Positions 6,419-62,136 of a stretch of DNA of 64,000 bases are shown one piece after another. The position numbers and the translations under genes were made by a program. Numbering within the stretch: the stretch's first letter is position 1; each line of letters opens with the position of its first letter. The notes beneath the pieces are model-generated. The model did no database searches and was not told the origin of the DNA. It worked only from the letters and a program-made list of their open reading frames with translations. Location: the NCBI RefSeq assembly GCF_016026235.1, contig NZ_CP065613.1; one strand, given 5' to 3'. The stretch comes from Escherichia coli. Lineage in GTDB: Bacteria; Pseudomonadota; Gammaproteobacteria; Enterobacterales; Enterobacteriaceae.

Positions 6419-6599
<181 letters not shown>

Positions 6600-6613
6600 C
6601 GATCACAATACAA

Positions 6614-34922: not shown

Positions 34923-35158
34923 TTTGGTTCCTCTAAATCCAGCTTTCAATTTAGCGTAGATAAAGAGACAGATCGGTACACTGTATTATCTGCCTCGACT
35001 ATTAATAACTCAGTTTATCTTATCGAAACTAACGCTTACCTCAAGTTGATATCACTAATAAATAACCATCAAAATGGTTTAAATGACTTATTAATCTCGA
35101 TTTACCAGTGTGATAAACTGAAAGTTAATTTATTCATAACTAATTGTTTTTACGACAG

Positions 35159-36674: not shown

Positions 36675-38822
36675 TTATTTTTTGCTTTCTTCTTTCAATA
36701 CCTTAACGGTATAGCGGCCATCAGCCTGACGGTATGCACCGTGAATATCGGTTTCAAAGCCCGGATAGTGAGCGCCGATTTCACACAGCATCTGCAGGAA
36801 CTCCAGAACCGGACGGCTTTCTTCGGTGATCATTTCACCCGGCATTACCAGAGGAACTCCCGGCGGATATGGAAGGATCATATTGGCGTTAATACGACCT
36901 ACCATTTCGTCGAGGTAAACTTCTTCGGTCATACCGTGCAGCTCTTTCTGGAACGCAGCATACGGAGTCATTACCATTGTCGGCAGCACTTCAAATGCGC
37001 GATACATCAGATCCGGCAGATTGTGGTGAACAATCAGTTTGTGGATATTCTGAGCCAGTTCCTGAATACGCATGTTTTCATAGAATTCAGGATCTTCACG
37101 ATACAGAGACGGCAGCATGTTTTTCACACGCAGGTTCAGGTCGAACGCACGTTTGAAGTCAGTCAGAGCACGCAGCAGGCTCAGTGCTTTGGTCTTATCG
37201 ATACCGATGCTGAACAGGAACAGCAGGTTATACGGACCGGTTTTCTCAACAACGATGCCATGTTCGTCGAGGTATTTCGCCACGATGCTGGCCGGAATAC
37301 CAAAGTCGCTCATGGTGCCGTCTTTTTCCATCCCCGGAGTCAGCAGGGTGACTTTGATCGGGTCAAGATACATGTGCTCGTTATCGATGTTTTTGAAGCC
37401 GTGCCAGGTGCTGTCAGAACGCAGCGGCCAGCATTCAGTCGTATCGATATGATCCGGCTGCCATACATCAAAGAACCAGCCATCAGATTCCGTTCTCAGA
37501 CGTTTGATCTCTTTACGGAATTTGATCGCACGTTCAATGGAACCGTTGATCAGACGTTTACCTGCATTGCCTTTCATCATCGCCGCAGCGGTTTCAGTGG
37601 ACGCCACGATACCGTAGTGAGGAGAAGTGGTGGTGTGCATCATGTAGGCTTCGTTAAAGGTTTCTTCGTTTACGTCACCTTTAACGTGGATCATGGAAGC
37701 CTGAGAGAACGCCGCCAGCAGTTTGTGAGTGGACTGGGTTTCGTAAATCACTTTCCCTTCTACACGGCCACCGCTCATACCGCATTTACCTTCGTAAATC
37801 GGTGAGAAGTTGGTGTAAGGCACCCACGCGGAGTCAAAGTGGATGGATTTCACATCCAGTGTTTTCTTGATGAAGTCGGTGTTGTACAGCAGACCATCAT
37901 AGGTAGAGTTGGTAATTACAGCATGTACCGGCCAGGTTGCGTTTGGTGTTTCTTTCACGCGCTTAGCAATGGTAGCGTGCTGGAATTCACTCTGTGGGAT
38001 ACCACCAAGAATACCGTAAGCGTTACGGGTCGGGCGGAAATAGATTGGCGTAACATCGCTCATCATCATCAGGTGGGTCAGCGATTTGTGGCAGTTACGG
38101 TCAATCAGAATGGTGCTGCCTGCCGGAGCAGAGTACATGCCAACAATTTTGTTCGCAGTGGAAGTACCGTTGGTCACCATGTAGCTGCGGTCTGCGTTAA
38201 AGACGCGAGCGATATACTGTTCTGCTTCTTTGTGTGGACCACTGTGATCCAGCAGAGAACCCAGTTCAGATACTGAAATGGAAATATCAGATTTCATGGT
38301 ATTCGGACCAAAGAAATCATAGAACAGGCTACCTACCGGGCTTTTCTGAAATGCAGTACCGCCCATGTGACCAGGAGTACAGAAAGTATATTTACCTTCA
38401 CGAACATATTTAAACAGTGCTTTAGTCAGCGGAGGCAGAATAGTGTTGATATATTCGTCAGTGGTCTGCTTGATCTTATTAGCAATATCTTCAGCAGCAC
38501 CCAGCGCATATTCAAAGAAGCTAATCTGTAAACGCAGGTCATTCAGGCTTACATCGAGAGTGGAATACGTATTAGCGAACGCGTACAACGGCAGGTTCTC
38601 GTTCATTTTGCTAATTTCTTCGCACAGCTCGAGATTATATTTATCCCAGTCAAAAATAACGCCGCACAGACGCGCATTGTTTTCGATCAGTTTTAATAAG
38701 TCGTCACGGTCGTTCGGGTAAACAATCTGGAAGTTCAGACGTTCAAGCGCGCGATGAAGTTCACGGATGGGTTCTTCTTTAAAATAAACCCCCATGTGAT
38801 TCAATATTGCAATAACGTTCAT
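36675..38822 (-). CDS. cadA: inducible lysine decarboxylase
   Basis: Start MNVIAILNHMGVYFKEEPIRELH; 715 aa; intact. Confidence 0.94.
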   Translation of the reverse strand: MNVIAILNHMGVYFKEEPIRELHRALERLNFQIVYPNDRDDLLKLIENNARLCGVIFDWDKYNLELCEEISKMNENLPLYAFANTYSTLDVSLNDLRLQISFFEYALGAAEDIANKIKQTTDEYINTILPPLTKALFKYVREGKYTFCTPGHMGGTAFQKSPVGSLFYDFFGPNTMKSDISISVSELGSLLDHSGPHKEAEQYIARVFNADRSYMVTNGTSTANKIVGMYSAPAGSTILIDRNCHKSLTHLMMMSDVTPIYFRPTRNAYGILGGIPQSEFQHATIAKRVKETPNATWPVHAVITNSTYDGLLYNTDFIKKTLDVKSIHFDSAWVPYTNFSPIYEGKCGMSGGRVEGKVIYETQSTHKLLAAFSQASMIHVKGDVNEETFNEAYMMHTTTSPHYGIVASTETAAAMMKGNAGKRLINGSIERAIKFRKEIKRLRTESDGWFFDVWQPDHIDTTECWPLRSDSTWHGFKNIDNEHMYLDPIKVTLLTPGMEKDGTMSDFGIPASIVAKYLDEHGIVVEKTGPYNLLFLFSIGIDKTKALSLLRALTDFKRAFDLNLRVKNMLPSLYREDPEFYENMRIQELAQNIHKLIVHHNLPDLMYRAFEVLPTMVMTPYAAFQKELHGMTEEVYLDEMVGRINANMILPYPPGVPLVMPGEMITEESRPVLEFLQMLCEIGAHYPGFETDIHGAYRQADGRYTVKVLKEESKK

Positions 38823-38901
38823 AGTCATATCTCCAGGTAAAAAAGGCCCCTCCCAACACATGGGACAAAATGAAAGGAGGAGCCTCGGAAAATACTTTTA
38901 A

Positions 38902-40236
38902 TTAATGTGCGTTAGACGCGGTGTGGTTATCCATTGAGTGGCTCTGGCGCTCGTGCATTTTGCGAGCGTAGAACATCAGGATAATCAGGCTGACGATGAA
39001 GGTACCTGCCAGCTCGAAGGAGCTTGCGCCCATCAGCGCGATGAAGCAGAACACGCAACCCAGTACAGAGCAGATCAGGCTGACAAAGTTGCGGATGTTA
39101 ACGCCTTCAAAACGAATCAGGTCAACGCAAGAGTAGAAGTACGGCAGCATAGTCAGCAGTACTGCGATACCGGTCAGTTCACCGAACAGGTCAGATGCTT
39201 TACCACCGGCAGAGTTCATCAGAGTGATGAGGATCATCAGGGCAGTCATTTTCACTGCAGCCAGCAGCAGACCTTTTTTCGGAATACCGTTGCTGTCGAC
39301 TTCACCATAAACTTTCGGGAAGTTACCGTCGTTAGCGGCACGTACACCTGCCTGGCCTACCAACATCATCCAGGATCCCAGAGAAGTCAGGCACGCAAAG
39401 GCGGTGAATGCAGAAACCAGCGGCGCAGCCCAGTTACCGAGGATGGTTGAAGCACTGATTGCAAACGGAGCACCGGAAGCTGCCATTACAGAAGATGGAT
39501 ACATACCGGAAAGCACCTGAGTCGCAGCGATGTAAACAATACCTGCTAAACCAGTACCCAGCATGGTTGCCAGCGGAACGGTACGTTTCGGGTTTTTAAC
39601 CATACCAGTACTTACTGCTGCGGATTCAACACCCACGAAGGCCCACAGGCAGAGCAGAATACTTTTAATGATCGCATGACCATCAGTGGTATCCGCAGTA
39701 TTCCAGTTAGCTGCATAAGTTGCCGCATCAAACCAATGCCAGCCAACAATAGCAGTCATCACCACAGGAATAAGAACCAGCACCAGACCAATAGTGGTTA
39801 AACGGCTTACCCAAGTACCGCCGAGCATATTTACAAAGGTAAATACCCAGACGATAGCAATACAGGCGATACCCGCCGGAACAGGATCATTTAATACTGG
39901 GAAGAAGGTGGAAAGATAAGATACCGCGGTAATACCAATCGCCAGGTTACCAATCCAGTTAGCATGGTAATAAAGAACACCTGTCTGAAAACCAAATGCA
40001 GGGGAAATTTCTCCGGCATAAGCAATTGGGCCACCTTGTTGCGGGTTTTTTGTTGCCAGTCGGGCATATACATACGCCAGCGACATTGCACCAATAATAG
40101 AGATAATCCAACCCCAGATAGCAATACCACCGATACTTGCTAGGTTCGCAGGTAATAATGCAATACCGCTCCCCATCATATTACCGGCAACAACACCGGT
40201 ACAGGCAAATAGCCCGATCTTCTTGGCAGAACTCAT
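38902..40236 (-). CDS. cadB: lysine:cadaverine antiporter
   Basis: 444 aa APC transporter; intact. Confidence 0.93.
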   Translation of the reverse strand: MSSAKKIGLFACTGVVAGNMMGSGIALLPANLASIGGIAIWGWIISIIGAMSLAYVYARLATKNPQQGGPIAYAGEISPAFGFQTGVLYYHANWIGNLAIGITAVSYLSTFFPVLNDPVPAGIACIAIVWVFTFVNMLGGTWVSRLTTIGLVLVLIPVVMTAIVGWHWFDAATYAANWNTADTTDGHAIIKSILLCLWAFVGVESAAVSTGMVKNPKRTVPLATMLGTGLAGIVYIAATQVLSGMYPSSVMAASGAPFAISASTILGNWAAPLVSAFTAFACLTSLGSWMMLVGQAGVRAANDGNFPKVYGEVDSNGIPKKGLLLAAVKMTALMILITLMNSAGGKASDLFGELTGIAVLLTMLPYFYSCVDLIRFEGVNIRNFVSLICSVLGCVFCFIALMGASSFELAGTFIVSLIILMFYARKMHERQSHSMDNHTASNAH

Positions 40237-40601: not shown

Positions 40602-41510
40602 TTATTCTGAAGCGAGAAATTTGTCGAGATAAGGTACAACATAAGGAACAGAAGTCTGGAATATACCATTTTCAATCCAGTAAAGGGTGTTTGCCCCTGG
40701 GCGTAAATTAAAGGCGGTGAGATATGCATCAGCCGCTTCCCGGTTCATCCCCTTCATTTCATAAACCTTGCCAAGCAACACATAATTTAGCCAGGACATT
40801 TCAAGATCAATGCCAGTATTTATCGCCTGGTAAGACTCATCTGTTTTACCTTTTACCAGAGCACTGACCGCTTTTATTTGATATATAATGGACAGGTTGT
40901 TCAATTCCGGCAGTGTAACAATGTTGTCTATTTCTGTGTTCAGTGCTGCTAATTGTTTTTCATCTAAAGGGTGTTGAGAATGGCGCACGATATCAACTAA
41001 TGCTTTTTCTGCTCTCGCGTAGGTAAATTCTGGGGATGATTGAACAATCTCACCTAATAATTCACTGGCACGATTCAATGATTTGTCATCGCCATGCAGT
41101 AAATAATCATGAGCCTGATAAAAATTAGTTAATAACGCACCACGATGAGGCAAAATTTGCTGGAGCGTCTCCTGCATTCGTTGTGGCCACGGTTGGTTTA
41201 ACGCTTTTGATAAACTCTCCAGTAAATCATTTTGAATCGCCAGCTGATTACCGTTAGTGATGACATAACGTTTATCCAGCATGGTTGAACCATCTGCATT
41301 GTCTACCAATTTTATCGACATAAAGCATTGTTGAGCACGGTATTGGCGCTGATTAACAAAGGCAATAGATAATGTTTTACCGGAACTGCTCGGTTCATCA
41401 ATGTTGTAGTTGATTTTGTCATGCACCATAAAGGTGGAGAAGGTGTTAAGTGATGTCGCCACCAAATCACCCACGCCTATCGCGTAAGAGAGCTGATACG
41501 GGGAACTCCA

Positions 41511-42803
41511 CTGAGGGATCCCCAGAAAATTTAGTAAACCATTATCATATTGGTATACCGTTGCTGTAGAACTTTCAGCCCTGCGTCAAGTGACAGTGTG
41601 TTTAGTATGAGTGGAGAATGTCGAATCACATTCTCCGCCAGTTTTAATAACGAGATGACTCGCCTGTGCTTCACTGTATTTGCCTGATATTTATGATGTA
41701 TCCCTTTGTTTTCCAGGCTGAAACCGCTTAACCACATAATGATACTGGCTAATGTTGCGATCAGACTCAATACCGTGACCCGCCCGGATGAATGACTGGC
41801 ACCAAACCGTAGTCCAAATCCCCAGCGAGGATTTTTTCATCCCTGAAATTTTGCTCAATTTGCATTCTACGGCTGTATAATTTCATTACCTGTTTTGGCG
41901 AGAACTCAGTACTGTTTGTGAAAATAAACCATGGTGATTTCCCGGCAGTACGAGCTTTAGCCGTCACCGATGGTCTGGTTGCTCTTTCCTTCGAGCGTTT
42001 AAATCTACGACCTTTAGGCTTACTTTTATAAAGATAAAAATGCCCTTCATGTTGTGCATTTTTATCTCGACCCAGCAGGCCTTCACCTAAATAAATTGCT
42101 GTCGTTGATGCTTTTGTGCCTGAGTCCGACACCTTTTCCCAGCCATTACCAACATTGTAATAATGATTGCCCAGTACCCGGCAAATATAGGTCCAGCCAC
42201 GGGAGCGGAGCTGTTGGAACCATCGCCCCTGAAAACCGGCATCTGTAATAACAATGACATCAGTCCCGGGGGAAAAGCACTCAGCAAGCGATTCCAGAAA
42301 ACGCTCATGTACATCTGCATTCGCTGTCTGTGATGATGGAACGACACAACTCATCAACGGTAAAGAACGCCCGTCACATGCCAGGCTTGCCCGCAAAAGC
42401 TGAAAACGAGAGGCATGATAAGCACTCCAGTCAATGAGTATCACAACACGAGACATTCCCCGCGTAATCTTTTGGGTAATTCGCTGAAAAATGGTGGAAA
42501 CCTCATTTTGCAAATGTCGATTCCCCAACAGTCGATCCACCCGCTTTATTTTGTTTTTAACTGATGCCGTACCGGTTAAATGACGCCCGATACTGGTAAG
42601 TGTGAGGGAAGCGCCATTTATTACAGCATTAGTTGCGTCAATCAGTGATTTTTGACGGTAAAGATGCAAAGGGGCCAGTATGTTGTTAAGGAAATTTTGG
42701 CATAATGAACGTGCAGGCATAGTGGTGATCTCCTTGAAATTGTTAGCACAATCAATTAGATCACATCTCACTATGCCTGTCTTGTTTTCTGGGGATTCCT
42801 CAG
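41511..42803 (-). mobile_element. IS10-like insertion sequence (IS4 family), ~1293 bp, inserted in cadC
   Basis: Imperfect terminal inverted repeats CTGAGGGATCCCCAGAAAA (41511..) and revcomp CTGAGGAATCCCCAGAAAA (..42803); flanking direct repeat gggaactcc(a) at 41501..41510 and 42804..42813; encodes IS10-related transposase. Confidence 0.85.
41531..42720 (-). pseudogene. IS10-family DDE transposase, disrupted by a frameshift near 41797..41808
   Basis: ATG 42720 preceded by AAGGAGAT SD; motifs KRVDRLLGNRHL, ILIDWS, ITDAGF, YSRRMQIEQNFRDEK align with IS10 transposase; frame ends at 41767 and C-terminal homology (QANTVKHRRV...) continues in another frame (41531..41770). Confidence 0.75.
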
Positions 42804-44018
42804 GGGAACTCCAGCTGTTACAACTTTTATTTACCATATTAATGTCAATATCGCGTGGATTGAGCAAAATACGCGATTTGCTCATCGGAAGACGTGTATC
42901 AAGACTTGAAAACGCTACCAGTGCTACACAGATACCTAAGGACAACAGGAAAAAAAACCATACCCAAAAGGTAGTGAATCGTTTGCTTTTAACTGGGGAT
43001 TGTTCAGGTGGCGTTGCGGTGTTTTGAATGTTAAGGCTGTGGGAGGGAGAATCTGTGGCAGGAACCGCCTCTGGTATAGGGGGAGGCGAAGATAGCATTA
43101 TTTCCTCTCCCTCTTCTTCGCTGTACCAGATAACCGGCACCATTAATTTATAGCCGCGCTTTGGTACAGTAGCGATATAGACAGGACTATCTTCATCATT
43201 ATCTTTTAATGAATTACGTAGTTCTGAGATACTCTGCGTCACAACGTGATTGGTGACAATACTTCTCTTCCAGACATTATCGATAAGTTCATCCCTGCTA
43301 AGTACTTCGCCACTGTGTTGAGCAAAGAAAACCAGAAGATCGATTAATCTCGGCTCAAGGGTAAGTTGACGCCCATTGCGGCTAATTTGGTTTATGGACG
43401 GAGTAACAAGCCATTCGCCAACGCGAACTACAGGTTGTTGCATAATAGAAACTCATTCGAAAAGGGAATGATGCAATGATAATTGCCACAACCTATTTTT
43501 ACCATCTATAGATGGGTTTATTTACATATTATTGGTGAATGCAAGACGTTATTTTTACCAGCCATAAACTTCTTGATTACATGGTATTACGAAAGGATTT
43601 TACTGAGAACCAGAAGTAATATTCCTTACCATCAAAATTCATCATCTTTGCCAAAGAAAAATGTTCAGAAAATAATCCATGGAAAATTGTCCGGAGCGCT
43701 TACTATTTTAATGGATTGTTAGTCTTTGCATGAGCAAGGGGACTGATACATTTCTCTTTGTTCTCATTCAGAAAATCTCATCAGTCGCCGTTCAGACCGG
43801 TGTTGTGCTTTATGGATGCGTTACGCTCCTGATGACGTCATTTGACGTTCAACAGCATCACGGGGTCGCACGACATTTCACGTCAGTTAGTGCTATAGCT
43901 CAGGAACAAATTTTCCCGAATTGGGATATGCCCGCAAATTGCTGGTGATGTGGGGAGAATCTGGTTGAGTTCGGTAGAATTGATTTGGCGGCAGAACGCT
44001 TAAATCGTGGCGTCCTGA

Positions 44019-50664: not shown

Positions 50665-51921
50665 TTATGTGGTTATGCCATTTTCCGGCGTTTTTCGTTT
50701 TGGCAAAAACAGCCATAACCCCGCCAGCATGAGCAGCGCATAGAGACTTTTCCAGCCGACCATTGCCAGTAACAGAACGCATAACAGCCCGCCAACGACC
50801 GCCAGTAGTCGATAACGTCCTTGCAATAATTTACAGCCTGCCAGCATGCATAACAGATAAATCATAATAAAGATGCCATTGGCATAAATAATAAGAGCGT
50901 CCAGATTGATCTCTAAAGCATGAATCACCAGCGTGCTCACCACGCAGCAGCCGAGCACCGCATTGAGGGCATTATTCGGGATATGGCGAGAAGAGAGGCG
51001 CGCGAGGTAGTGGTCAGGATTATGTTGCGCCTGCGACCAGACCAGACGGGCGAAGCTCTGTATATAAATGTTGAGACTGGCAAAGCAGGCCAGATAGCCA
51101 ATCACGCAGGCAATCCATAACGCTCCTACTCCGAACAGTTGCACTACAATTTTTGGAAGCGATGCTGCCGCCGCCATTTGTTCACCATAGGCGTCGAAGT
51201 GTAAGACGACTACCGTACAGCCCCAGTAGACTAATCCTGCCAGCAGCAGACCAATCATCAAAGCACGAGGAAAATCACGTTCTGGATTTTTAAATTCCGA
51301 GGCAAGATGGGCAAATGCTTCAAGACCGACAAAACACCAGAACATCACTGATAACGCAGCAAATAACCCGGTAAGTTCGATATTTATTGGCGCGGGGAAG
51401 GGGATACTCGCAGGTTTGATATCGCCCGCCCACCAGATAGCGACAATCAGTGCGACGATAAGTCCGGCAATAACGGTTTGTAGATTTGCACTGGAACTGG
51501 CACCGCGAGTACCGATATACCACACCAACGCCAGCGTACCGAGTTCTGCCAACAACAGTTGCCAGCTATGCCAGCCAAACATCGCCTGGCCGAACCCGGC
51601 AGCAATTTGTAGTGCGGCGGGTAAACCCACAGGAATGACTGATAAAAACAGCCAGCCGGTGACTCGCTCAAGCCGCGAACCAAACGCCATACCTACGAAG
51701 TGCGCGACGCCGCCTGCGCTGGGATAGTGGCGACCCAGAATCGCAAACACAATCGCAATCGGGAACACTAAGATAATCAAAACGGGCCACGCCCACAGGC
51801 TGTTATTGCCCGCTACCAGTGCAGCTAACGCAGGAACGGCAAACACGCCAGTGCCTAATAATGACGTCGATAGCAGGCCAACGCCCTGGGCCAGCCCCAG
51901 TTCTTGTTTGAGTCCACTCAT
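50665..51921 (-). CDS. yjeH: APC-family amino acid exporter YjeH
   Basis: Start MSGLKQELGLAQGVGLL; 418 aa. Confidence 0.88.
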   Translation of the reverse strand: MSGLKQELGLAQGVGLLSTSLLGTGVFAVPALAALVAGNNSLWAWPVLIILVFPIAIVFAILGRHYPSAGGVAHFVGMAFGSRLERVTGWLFLSVIPVGLPAALQIAAGFGQAMFGWHSWQLLLAELGTLALVWYIGTRGASSSANLQTVIAGLIVALIVAIWWAGDIKPASIPFPAPINIELTGLFAALSVMFWCFVGLEAFAHLASEFKNPERDFPRALMIGLLLAGLVYWGCTVVVLHFDAYGEQMAAAASLPKIVVQLFGVGALWIACVIGYLACFASLNIYIQSFARLVWSQAQHNPDHYLARLSSRHIPNNALNAVLGCCVVSTLVIHALEINLDALIIYANGIFIMIYLLCMLAGCKLLQGRYRLLAVVGGLLCVLLLAMVGWKSLYALLMLAGLWLFLPKRKTPENGITT

Positions 51922-54240: not shown

Positions 54241-54317
54241 TTTGGTCATCTTTCTAGTATAAGATTCAGACACGGACGACGCGAGTGGCGTCCAGCTCAT
54301 TGATTATGGGGAATAAC

Positions 54318-58061: not shown

Positions 58062-58208
58062 ATGGTGAAGAAGACAATTGCAGCGATCTTTTCTGTTCTG
58101 GTGCTTTCAACAGTATTAACTGCCTGCAACACCACGCGTGGCGTTGGTGAAGACATTTCTGATGGCGGTAACGCGATTTCTGGTGCAGCAACGAAAGCGC
58201 AGCAATAA
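58062..58208 (+). CDS. ecnB: entericidin B small lipoprotein (48 aa)
   Basis: [48 protein letters not shown]; paralog of ecnA. Confidence 0.8.
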
Positions 58209-58244
58209 GCAATATGATCCTACCCACGTAATATGGACACAGGC

Positions 58245-59111
58245 CTAAGCGAGGTTCTGGTTTTCAAATTGTTCCGGACTGAGGCCGCCACACCAACTGT
58301 GCCGCCGCCACCGATTGTAATCACATTCGATATAATTAAACACCGTTGCCCGCATTATTTCCCAGCTGATAAAGTGTTCTCCATGGATACATTCCACTTT
58401 CAGCGAATGAAAGAAGCTTTCCACGCAGGCATTATCGTAGCAGCAACCTTTTGCGCTCATACTTCCACGCAGATTATGCCGCTTCAGTTGCGCCTGATAA
58501 TCTGCTGAACAGTACTGGCCTCCACGGTCCGTGTGAACGATAACGTTCCGGGGCCTCTTACGCCGCCACAGCGCCATCTGCAGGGCATCGCAGGCCAGTT
58601 GCGCCGTCATGCGTGGCGACATTGACCAGCCAATAACGGCACGTGACCACAGGTCAATGACCACTGCCAGATACAGCCAGCCTTCATCTGTACGTAAGTA
58701 CGTGATGTCTCCTGCCCACTTCTGGTTCGGGCCACTGGCGTAAAAATCCTGCTCCAACAGATTTTCTGACACAGGCAGGCCGTGTGCGCGGTAGCTGACC
58801 GGGCTGAACTTCCGGGAGGCATTTGCCCTCAGTCCCTGACGGCGCAGGCTTGCCGCCACGGTTTTTACGTTAAAGGGGTAACCCTGAGCACGCAGTTCAT
58901 CCGTCAGGCGTGGGGCACCGTAACGCTGTTTTGACCGGGTAAAAGCCGCGAGGACAACGCTGTCGCAGTGTTGGCGGAACTGCTGACGCGTGCTTATCCT
59001 TGTCCGCCGCTGACACCACGTATACCAGCCGCTGCGGGCCACCCGGAACACGCGGCACATTGCTTTGATGCTGAACTCAGCCTGATGTTTTTCAATAAAG
59101 ACATACTTCAT
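58245..59111 (-). CDS. insF: IS3 transposase OrfB (DDE integrase domain)
   Basis: 288 aa; [21 protein letters not shown]...; ATGA overlap with orfA stop. Confidence 0.9.
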
Positions 59112-59407
59112 TTCAGGCGCTTCGCGAAGTATGTCGCGGCCTTTTGGAGGATAGCCAGCTCTTCATCCCGTTCTGCCAGCTGGCGTTTGAGACGTGCAAT
59201 CTCGGTAGACATCTCCAGTTCACGTTCAGAAGACGTCTGCTGATTTTGCTGTTTACTGCGCCAGTTGTAGAGCTGTGATTCATACAGGCTGAGTTCACGG
59301 GCTGCGGCAGTAACACCGATGCGTTCAGCAAGCTTCAGGGCTTCACTGCGAAATTCAGGCGAATGCTGTTTACGGGGTTTTTTACTGGTTGATACTGTTT
59401 TTGTCAT
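59108..59407 (-). CDS. insE: IS3 transposase OrfA (HTH)
   Basis: Start [29 protein letters not shown]; ~99 aa. Confidence 0.88.
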
Positions 59408-59580
59408 GTGAGTCACCTCTGACTGAGAGTTTACTCACTTAGCCGCGTGTCCACTATTGCTGGGTAAGATCAATAACGGTACGACAGCTGTGTCGTGCCG
59501 TTTGTTTTCTCTGCGATAGTCACAAAGGTAATAGTTGAAATTCCCCTGCCACCTGGCAAAATATCCGTTCAACCATCAGC

Positions 59581-59630
59581 TTTGCAGGACGACCTGCAAA
59601 CGCGTCTTTTCACCGGGGACGGCCCCAATT
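59581..59630 (+). ncRNA. guanidine-II riboswitch (mini-ykkC) in gdx leader
   Basis: Two short hairpins with ACGR loops: gcaggACGAcctgc (59584..59597) and ggggACGGcccc (59615..59626), followed by SD GGAG and gdx ATG at 59645. Confidence 0.8.
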
Positions 59631-59644
59631 CTCCGGAGCCTGAT

Positions 59645-59962
59645 ATGTCCTGGATTATCTTAGTTATTGCTGGTCTGCTGGAAGTGGTATGGGCCGTTGG
59701 CCTGAAATATACCCACGGCTTTAGTCGTTTGACGCCGAGTGTTATTACTGTGACGGCGATGATTGTCAGTATGGCGCTACTTGCCTGGGCGATGAAATCG
59801 TTACCAGTAGGGACGGCTTATGCCGTGTGGACGGGTATTGGCGCAGTCGGCGCGGCCATCACCGGCATTGTACTGCTCGGTGAGTCCGCTAACCCGATGC
59901 GCCTGGCGAGTCTGGCGTTAATCGTATTGGGGATTATTGGTCTGAAACTCAGCACTCACTAA
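59645..59962 (+). CDS. gdx: SMR-family guanidinium exporter
   Basis: Start [22 protein letters not shown]; 105 aa, 4 TM; ORF-track upstream extension is probably not translated. Confidence 0.9.
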
Positions 59963-60492
59963 CTACCGGGCTGCTGTACCCAAATAAACTTACTGACATC
60001 AAACCCTTCCCGGGTCGCGACTGCCAGCATCTCCTGTTTCACTTCGTCAGAAATGGTTGGCGTGCGGGAGAGTATCCACAGGTAGTCGCGGTCCGGGCCG
60101 CAAACCAGCGCATGGCGGTATTCCCGATCAAGTGCAATGACGTTATAACCGCCATAGAAAGGACCAAAGAATGACACTTTCAGCGCAGCGCGAGTTGGTA
60201 CGCCGGTAAAGTACGCTTTCCCTTCACTCTGCTGCCACATTCCTCTGTCAGGGTTATAGCCTTTATTAATGACATTCAGGCCGCCGTCATCACGCAGGCT
60301 GTATGTTGCGGTGACTTTTTCCAGTCCACGTTCAAAGCGGTGATCAAAACGGGCAATCTCATACCAGGTACCGAGATAGCGTTTAGCGTCGAAATTATTC
60401 ACTACGGTCACGCCACGCGGCGGCGTAGGAGAACTGCAGGCAACGACCAGAAATGCAGCTGTCGCTGCGGCAACGAGAGGGAGCAGGCGCAT
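59959..60492 (-). CDS. blc: outer membrane lipocalin Blc
   Basis: 177 aa; lipobox VVACSS. Confidence 0.9.
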
Positions 60493-60580
60493 AAATGTTT
60501 CCTTACTGGTTTTTTTCTAAGTGTAGATGACAGCAAGGAAAAGCGGAGAAAAGGTCCGAAAATTCGGACCCGATGAAATT

Positions 60581-62136
<1,556 letters not shown>

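Follow-up and report, generated by a model that had tools for sequence, protein, structure and literature searches.

A copy of the IS10-related insertion sequence ISEc60 in the chromosomal cadC gene of Escherichia coli

The interrupted cadC locus

The window, by which we mean the whole 64,000-nucleotide stretch of Escherichia coli DNA that was analysed, contains a cadC gene divided by an insertion element (41511..42803) whose transposase is encoded on the minus strand. The original prediction gave a size of ~1293 bp, and the element between the termini is exactly 1293 bp long, the canonical length of this element, ISEc60, being 1294 bp. Its ends are 19-nt imperfect terminal inverted repeats which match at 18 of 19 positions and both start with CTGAGG. 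The transposase-distal repeat, CTGAGGGATCCCCAGAAAA (41511..41529, plus strand), includes a GATC at 41517-41520, and the transposase-proximal repeat, CTGAGGAATCCCCAGAAAA (42785..42803, minus strand), is without GATC. These two are the only terminal-repeat matches in the 64-kb window, with 0.00 expected from shuffles. The predicted resemblance of the termini to IS10 ends is borne out by an IS10A control copy, which carries CTGAAGAATCCCC and CTGAAGGATCCCC.

Immediately outside the element, the sequence GGGAACTCCA is present as a 10-bp direct repeat, the target-site duplication, with its left copy at 41501..41510 and its right copy at 42804..42813. The element had been predicted to extend over 41501-42813; it does lie inside these limits, but both outer 10-bp stretches are the direct repeats. 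The earlier description was silent on these repeats, on the location in cadC and on a 1-nt deletion in the transposase gene. If the 10-11 nt at the flanks (GGGGAACTCCA) were counted as part of the element, it would be longer, its inverted repeats would be extended and the duplication would shrink to 2 bp. This assignment is consistent with BLAST matches to other ISEc60 copies, which often run into the flanks (query 1-1312), and with a repeat finder, whose inverted repeat reaches 28 nt (86%). However, the BLAST matches extend into the flanks because of the strong target consensus, the flank differs from copy to copy while being the same on both sides of each copy (GGGAACTCCA, GGGAAATCCC, GGTAAATCCC, GAGATTACGC and others), and uninterrupted cadC already holds GGGAACTCCA once, as at the empty site in E. 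coli FDAARGOS_943. The flanks were therefore rejected as part of the element, an assignment with almost no probability of being correct.

The insertion splits cadC at codon 214. The 5' part of the gene (42804..43443, minus strand; nt 1-640), encoding the DNA-binding domain and the transmembrane helix, reads in frame into the insertion sequence to produce a 558-aa CadC'-linker-transposase ORF. The 3' part (40602..41510, minus strand; from nt 631) encodes the periplasmic sensor domain and is severed from the promoter and start codon. Pfam CadC_C1 is recorded for a protein identical to the 290-aa product of this 3' part, and the identical 290-aa fragment is known from an unrelated cadC mutant. 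Neither the 558-aa CadC'-transposase fusion nor a 274-aa CadC fragment has an exact match among recorded proteins. Relative to uninterrupted cadC, the window contains 1303 extra bases (1293 + 10), and removal of the element with one repeat yields an intact 512-aa CadC. Among 5,426 complete E. coli genomes, none was found to carry ISEc60 at cadC codon 214.

Downstream, cadB (38902-40236, minus strand) and cadA (36675-38822, minus strand) are apparently intact, with full-length NCBIfam matches to PRK10435 (920 bits) and PRK15400 (1628 bits), respectively, and over 36675..40236 the two genes are colinear with K-12 with zero indels. The cadBA operon depends on CadC for activation, and the loss of full-length CadC therefore predicts that cadBA is not inducible and that the strain is lysine-decarboxylase-negative and forms no cadaverine. 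As the insertion is the sole lesion in cadC, it would by itself explain this predicted phenotype. The predicted state would correspond to the known pathoadaptive condition of enteroinvasive E. coli and Shigella, in which lysine decarboxylase is lost (Casalino et al. 2003, as summarised in PMC4156367 and PMC5723341). The window resembles insertions into cadC in these organisms in the same loss of cadC beside a cadBA operon that is intact and colinear with K-12, and differs in the element involved, a published case being an IS1 insertion in strain 6.81 and the present one ISEc60 at codon 214. Inactivation of cadC by an insertion sequence is a routine, well-known event in invasive E. coli and Shigella. 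In FDAARGOS_943, a 99.9%-identical sister strain, the annotation shows cadC disabled in a different way, through two single-base deletions; should these be real, they represent convergent loss inside one lineage.

Identity of the element

We are highly confident that the feature represents a single ISEc60 copy in the chromosomal cadC of an E. coli/Shigella-type genome that is a close relative of E. coli FDAARGOS_943. Over 1293-1312 nt, it is 99.5-99.8% identical at the nucleotide level to dozens of copies named ISEc60 by PGAP, which carry the label 'IS4-like element ISEc60 family transposase' and whose intact protein is WP_001111632.1. Near-identical copies occur on chromosomes and plasmids, with examples in enteroinvasive E. 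coli and on plasmids of S. dysenteriae and E. albertii. The sister strain FDAARGOS_943 contains about 36-38 ISEc60 copies. In a multiple alignment, the window copy equals the 39-copy consensus minus one T. The ISfinder naming convention treats elements with at least about 95% nucleotide identity as the same element. The original prediction implied an unnamed element and stated that a match of >95% to a named insertion sequence would make it routine; the identity to PGAP-named ISEc60 copies is such a match and the element is therefore not new. Judged by its sequence, it is already known, a catalogued IS10-related insertion sequence. The name rests on NCBI annotation of near-identical copies and on MobileElementFinder output in PMC11325645, not on an ISfinder entry, and is established in two published mobile-element surveys, one of them PMC11325645.

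A new, previously unnamed IS4-family insertion sequence would be compatible with a transposase only 36% identical to that of IS10 and with a scan for the exact 33-nt left end, which returned 0 matches among 100,044 species-representative genomes, a set containing no ISEc60 copy with that end. This is nevertheless extremely improbable given the full-length identity of 99.5-99.8% to many copies bearing the ISEc60 annotation, the exact intact 396-aa transposase being indexed in 512 blocks of a public protein collection, and the standing of the ISEc60 name in published mobile-element tables.

Placement in the IS10 group of the IS4 family, but outside IS10 itself, agrees with what had been proposed. 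The protein blocks on which that proposal relied, KRVDRLLGNRHL, ILIDWS, DAGF and YSRRMQIEQNFRD, all lie within the minus-strand ORF. IS4-family hallmarks are a DDE transposase in which the signature Y-(2)-R-(3)-E-(6)-K is found and a transposase gene without a frameshift (PMC2266710). The intact protein matches the transposase family NF033591 transpos_IS4_2 (360 bits, cut-off 152) and PF01609 (E = 2.8e-20), and the signature is present as YSRRMQIEQNFRDEK, corresponding to Y282, R285, E289 and K296. Typical values for the IS10 subgroup are 1200-1350 bp, 5'-CT ends and 9-bp direct repeats (Table 1, PMC2266710); the size of 1293/1294 bp and the CTGAGG ends conform to these values, and the 10-bp repeat is a deviation from the typical value, not an exclusion. 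Similarity to IS10 was expected to be only moderate, and 134 of 372 aligned residues are identical (36%, E = 5e-76). This level of amino acid identity to WP_001206290.1, together with nucleotide searches that returned no IS10 copies, places the element outside IS10.

The transposase gene and its frameshift

Canonical ISEc60 contains one ORF of 396 aa. In the window, the truncated transposase ORF (41767..42720, minus strand) encodes residues 1-296 of 396 followed by 21 out-of-frame residues and a stop. It retains D97, D160, E289 and the Y282-R285-E289-K296 motif, and the C-terminal 100 residues are gone. The displaced C-terminal part forms a 79-aa ORF (41531..41770, minus strand) in frame -1 with respect to the upstream part. 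Exact protein matches to the 317-aa and 79-aa products led to two other assemblies. The frameshift site (41832..41837) is a T6 run on the plus strand, A6 on the coding strand (GAA AAA ATC), whereas T7 (GAA AAA AAT) is found in every well-supported copy, as seen in alignment columns 383-389 and the per-copy run lengths. Thus, the window copy has the ends and gene of canonical ISEc60 and differs from it in length (1293 versus 1294 bp), in A6 versus A7 and in the frameshift after residue 296.

The A6 run can be read in two ways, as a genuine defect or as a homopolymer error within a repeat. If it is real, the copy is unable to supply its own transposase; as the ends are intact, other copies could still move it. 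We place slightly short of an even chance on the true copy being A7, with A6 a residual homopolymer error left by long-read or 454 assembly in a repeat present in many copies, a setting in which polishing with short reads does not work. A6 is present in all ISEc60 copies listed for GCA_900449095.1 and GCA_000188815.2, two assemblies with demonstrable homopolymer errors nearby, and ten places containing the 79-aa ORF among the matches listed are all in these same assemblies. The orthologous insertions in FDAARGOS_943, one at xdhD/xanQ and one at slyX, have A7, A6 is absent from all 98 places in RefSeq complete E. coli genomes, and the 79-aa ORF created by A6 occurs in 8 protein-collection blocks compared with 512 for the intact protein. 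In contrast, the non-repeated sequence of the window is clean, with no CDS frameshifts over 49 kb relative to K-12, and homopolymers of at least 7 bases in the window are concordant in 11 of 11 cases, including the cadC A8 that is shortened in FDAARGOS_943. In addition, homopolymers are true mutational hot spots and RefSeq does contain frameshifted ISEc60 copies, observations which favour a real deletion.

A6 could also be both real and mobile if the full-length transposase were restored by slippage, either an occasional -1 shift of tRNA-Lys on A-AAA-A or slippage during transcription of the A run. Slippage would explain the existence of A6 copies at at least 10 sites, each with its own duplication, most of them clean and 10 bp long, in copies that otherwise equal the consensus apart from a few private changes; a -1 shift at AAA would produce exactly the wild-type ...DEK-NPRW... 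sequence. However, a canonical X XXY YYZ slippery heptamer is absent, IS4-family transposase genes are typically without a frameshift (PMC2266710), the assemblies carrying A6 show homopolymer errors, and better assemblies from this lineage have A7 at the orthologous insertions. Slippage is thus very unlikely. The homopolymer errors and the A7 runs at the orthologous FDAARGOS_943 insertions led us to largely reject a real, proliferating A6 variant.

Target preference, control features and relation to IS10 and ISSfl1

At 22 independent ISEc60 sites, insertion is associated with a 10-bp duplication in each case and with a shared symmetric consensus, cG-GGGAWWTCCC-Cg, a preference which the window site fits. 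With the window and relatives at 85% identity included, the 10-bp duplication is observed at 25 clean sites, and 3 copies read 11 bp. Targets are frequently located in terminator hairpins, and the motif may often top G+C-rich hairpins, for example the intrinsic terminators downstream of dnaJ and slyX. With so strict a target, independent lineages would strike identical sites, in both orientations, and second copies would enter the duplication of a first copy, the resulting tandem pairs then moving as a unit. We tentatively suggest that ISEc60 and its close relatives may constitute an IS10-related clade with an undescribed, unusually strict 10-bp palindromic target rule, although this is somewhat doubtful. 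A description of the rule was not found in the searchable literature, but it may be on record in the ISfinder entry. The same literature yielded no experiments on ISEc60, papers naming ISEc60 or ISSfl1 only tabulating them. Insertion sequence annotation and hot-spot prediction could benefit from three side observations, on the strict and hairpin-like target, on the duplication of 10 bp and on a conserved antisense hairpin; all three leave knowledge of the element class unchanged.

The antisense hairpin, which is RNA-OUT-like (42713..42783, plus strand), overlaps the transposase ATG (42720-42718, minus strand) and is stable, with a dG of -31.6 kcal/mol (z = -7.2). Its position, strand, length and stability match those of RNA-OUT in IS10A, and in the IS10A control, as here, the 5' end is located 8 nt within the CDS. 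Four relatives preserve the stem; among them there are 2 compensatory pairs, as well as 7 one-sided G-U changes consistent with the antisense strand. Against Rfam RF00240, the hairpin (42713-42783, plus strand) scores 16.8 bits (E = 7.7), which does not reach the gathering score of 41 bits, whereas the IS10A control scores 85.9 bits. By analogy with IS10, the hairpin is RNA-OUT-like in predicted function, yet it is not a member of RF00240 by the Rfam criterion.

Candidate promoter motifs are present on both strands of this region. A candidate extended -10 of a pOUT-like promoter, TGGCATAAT (42698..42706, plus strand), is situated 7 nt upstream of the hairpin 5' end, and a candidate extended -10 of a pIN-like promoter, TGATCTAAT (42755..42763, minus strand), overlaps the GATC at 42759-42762. 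Relatives, ISSfl1 among them, conserve the pIN-like motif. A generic two-hexamer promoter scan flagged neither candidate, and the pIN and pOUT assignments are therefore ones that we infer from reading the sequence.

Homology to IS10 suggests how these features might operate. Transposition would be a non-replicative cut-and-paste process in which transposase acts on both ends, excision is hairpin-mediated and the target is cut in a staggered manner. Expression of transposase would be held low by the RNA-OUT-like antisense RNA, which would pair with the mRNA at its 5' end, and read-through transcripts may fold back, hiding the start codon. Dam methylation could act at two GATC sites, one within the transposase promoter, in its -10 region, and the other in the distal end.

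Within the IS4 family, IS10 (IS10R/IS10A/ISVsa5 of Tn10) serves as type member of the IS10 subgroup. ISEc60 resembles it in ends beginning CTGA..(A/G)ATCCCC with GATC solely in the transposase-distal end, in a single DDE/YREK transposase whose D, D and E residues (D97/D160/E289 in ISEc60) align with those of IS10A, in an antisense hairpin with its 5' end 8 nt within the CDS, and in a symmetric target consensus. The IS10 target consensus is NGCTNAGCN, whereas that of ISEc60, GGGAWWTCCC, is another sequence. Further differences are length, 1328-1329 bp in IS10 versus 1294 bp in ISEc60, and an ISEc60 hairpin that falls below the threshold of the RNA-OUT covariance model. The duplication also differs, 9 bp for IS10 (Table 1, PMC2266710) versus 10 bp for ISEc60. 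The closest named relative found is ISSfl1, an IS4-family element from the Shigella flexneri virulence plasmid, with 52% amino acid identity to the ISEc60 transposase. Both of its 13-nt end sequences are identical to those of ISEc60, with GATC again only in the distal end, and ISSfl1 preserves the antisense hairpin, with compensatory changes. ISSfl1 differs in being 1301 bp long and in producing, in the single copy examined, a 9-bp duplication (CCTGAAGGG).

Identity of the element inserted in cadC

The terminal inverted repeats are located at 41511-41529 (+) and 42785-42803 (-), the sole two matches in the window where none is expected by chance, and enclose a segment of 1293 bp. A perfect direct repeat, GGGAACTCCA, is present at 41501-41510 and 42804-42813, and the span originally predicted, 41501-42813, therefore comprises the element plus both copies of this repeat. 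A search with the termini detected no second copy in the 64-kb window. When 5,426 complete E. coli genomes and 72,556 plasmids were searched by megablast, the 1293-bp segment had full-length matches at 99.5–99.8% identity. NCBI labels these "IS4-like element ISEc60 family transposase", their product being an intact protein of 396 aa (WP_001111632.1), and the name ISEc60 is also used in published mobile-element tables. By the NCBI annotation of these near-identical copies, from which the name is taken, the element is ISEc60 and is already catalogued. The novelty implied by the original prediction is consequently lost, the identity to a named IS being far above 95%. Carriers include enteroinvasive E. 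coli CFSAN029787 (chromosome and virulence plasmid) and related strains, the sister genome E. coli FDAARGOS_943 with copies in 36–38 places, two S. dysenteriae virulence plasmids and many E. albertii plasmids. Compared with the consensus of 39 aligned copies, the window copy lacks one T and is otherwise the same.

The placement of the element as IS10-group but not canonical IS10 was correct. The intact transposase matches the NCBIfam IS4 family transposase model NF033591 at 360 bits (cut-off 152) and Pfam PF01609, and the blocks recognized earlier, KRVDRLLGNRHL, ILIDWS, DAGF and YSRRMQIEQNFRD, are all present in the minus-strand ORF. Alignment with IS10A and ISSfl1 reveals D97, D160 and E289 together with a Y282-R285-E289-K296 signature, Y-R-E-K being the signature that defines the IS4 family (PMC2266710). 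The transposase is 36% identical to that of IS10A and 52% identical to that of ISSfl1, and a canonical size of 1294 bp with 5'-CT ends is as expected for the IS10 subgroup (PMC2266710).

Loss of cadC and the host lineage

The IS splits cadC (40602-43443, minus strand) after nt 640, at codon P214. When the IS and one repeat are taken out by fusing 41510 with 42814, the product is identical, base for base, to the empty site in FDAARGOS_943 and translates to the full 512-aa CadC; thus, the IS is the only lesion in cadC. Insertion occurred just past the transmembrane helix, so that the periplasmic sensor domain is severed from the part that binds DNA and spans the membrane. Downstream, cadBA (36675-40236) is full length in both genes, having no indels relative to K-12. 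The same cadC insertion was found in no complete genome of the collection of 5,426 E. coli. [quoted passage not shown] The source strain is predicted to be lysine-decarboxylase-negative and cadaverine-free, as are enteroinvasive E. coli and Shigella. Insertion in cadC is a routine type of event in these bacteria, yet biologically meaningful for the strain.

The cadC frame also stays open across the IS end and on into the transposase gene, creating a 558-aa ORF (41767-43443, -) composed of CadC residues 1–214, a 27-aa linker derived from the IS end, transposase residues 1–296 and 21 out-of-frame residues. Translation started at cadC would bypass a fold-back masking the transposase start codon.

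The window is 99.9–99.97% identical to FDAARGOS_943 over ~45 kb, and the junction of an IS3 copy adjoining ecnAB (~58200-59472) is common to FDAARGOS_943 alone among the 5,426 complete E. coli genomes. The two near-identical strains differ markedly in IS content: FDAARGOS_943 lacks ISEc60 in cadC and carries two extra IS5-family copies, at 35055 between dtpC and lysU and at 54254-54257 near yjeI, as well as IS66 in yjeH at 51620-51627. Beside IS3, ~1.16 kb (59474-60636) is retained in the window and missing in FDAARGOS_943, suggesting that this genome has undergone an IS-adjacent deletion. FDAARGOS_943 cadC (L017; L054:26040-27576) has two 1-nt deletions, relative to window positions 41374 and 42957, one of them in an A8 run, and is annotated as frameshifted by PGAP. 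These deletions reflect either convergent cadC loss in one lineage or sequencing errors; if they are real, cadC has been lost twice independently within one lineage.

Elsewhere in the window, rdcB (~10260) has a 12-nt in-frame deletion relative to K-12; 223 blocks of the public collection contain the 288-aa allele that results, among them the high-copy ISEc60 genome GCA_031665325.1. The region 6420-6603 aligns with the interval between yjdN and yjdM in K-12 (K-12 locus 806-1285) in several registers offset by 100 nt. It is a tandem array of ~100-bp units and appears to be shorter in the window.

The shortened A run of the transposase gene

The window copy contains a run of six A residues (A6, GAA AAA ATC) in place of the canonical seven (A7, GAA AAA AAT), breaking the frame after K296, with the result that all catalytic residues are retained while the last 100 residues are lost. 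Exact-protein look-ups detected the A6 form at at least 10 other sites in GCA_900449095.1 and GCA_000188815.2, most flanked by a clean 10-bp duplication and several at 100% identity to the window copy, giving the first impression that the frameshifted element is still spreading. The evidence argues otherwise. All ISEc60 copies shown for these two assemblies are A6 (L018, L020-L029), homopolymer deletions are clustered nearby, and FDAARGOS_943 has A7 in its orthologous insertions at xdhD/xanQ and slyX. Furthermore, no A6 was found across 98 places in RefSeq complete E. coli, and the intact protein is found in 512 blocks of the collection compared with 8 for the A6-specific ORF. In these assemblies, therefore, A6 most likely reflects sequencing error associated with repeats. 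As to the window's own A6, a real defect and an artefact are about equally probable: polishing fails precisely in repeats, whereas the unique DNA of the window is clean, with no CDS frameshifts over 49 kb and with 11 of 11 long homopolymers agreeing with K-12. The A6 case is a caution for pseudogene calls in IS elements.

Target choice and proposed control in comparison with IS10

A 10-bp duplication is observed at 22 independent insertion sites (loci L001-L039 and window 41501-41510), whereas 9 bp is usual in the IS10 subgroup (PMC2266710) and was seen at one copy of ISSfl1. The target consensus over the 22 sites is symmetric, cG-GGGAWWTCCC-Cg, each G or C position contributing ~1 bit. Many of these sites form the apex of a terminator-like, G+C-rich hairpin with a T run behind it, examples being AAAAAAGCGGGGAATCCCCGCTTTTTTT near slyX and the hairpin downstream of dnaJ. 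Different genomes carry the element at the same site in opposite orientations (L024 and L039; L023 and L027), and independent use in both orientations was seen after dnaJ and in a FAD-oxidase gene. On the enteroinvasive virulence plasmid pCFSAN029787_01 (L002:1708-4305), two copies form a tandem IS-GGTAAATCCC-IS, the second lying in the 10-bp duplication of the first, and sister plasmid CP050863 (L016) has a single ISEc60 at this site. On the GCA_031665585.1 chromosome (L031, L032) this pair recurs, its members again separated by GGTAAATCCC, within a new duplication, GGAAAATCCC; the two copies therefore transposed together. The target rule and the 10-bp length of the duplication, like the antisense hairpin conserved in relatives (below), are side results of modest interest.

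IS10 and IS50 transpose by cut-and-paste through hairpin intermediates, and ISEc60, by analogy, would do the same. A very stable 71-nt hairpin antisense to the transposase and overlapping its start is located at 42713-42783 (+; dG -31.6 kcal/mol, z = -7.2). Its 5' end lies 8 nt inside the CDS, as does that of RNA-OUT, the IS10 antisense RNA, in the IS10A control (L049:190-258); the Rfam RNA-OUT model scores 85.9 bits in the control and gives a full-length, sub-threshold match of 16.8 bits in ISEc60. Four relatives retain the stem: ISSfl1, one from a Salmonella plasmid and two at 82–85% identity. Two of its pairs have changed on both sides, and seven one-sided changes give G-U pairs that would be A-C mismatches in the mRNA; in four of five sequences the antisense fold is stabler than the mRNA-strand fold. 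Candidate extended -10 elements, TGGCATAAT (42698-42706, +) and TGATCTAAT (42763-42755, -), would drive the antisense RNA and the transposase mRNA, respectively; a generic promoter scan flagged neither. The two transcripts would overlap by ~36 nt, as they do in IS10. Inside the IS, the strand antisense to the 3' region of the transposase gene also carries a terminator-like hairpin (41611-41638, +; an 11-bp stem, then a short T run), which might block transcription arriving from the distal end.

Of the two ends, the transposase-distal one alone contains a GATC, and the same is true of IS10A and ISSfl1; the mRNA candidate TGATCTAAT overlaps another GATC (42759-42762). IS10 is under Dam-methylation control, and the GATC placement in ISEc60 fits control of this kind. 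In the mRNA, the palindrome that forms the antisense hairpin has outer arms through which the start codon pairs with sequence closer to the IS end. The upstream arm would be present in read-through transcripts only, a start-codon pairing that parallels the fold-back protection of IS10.
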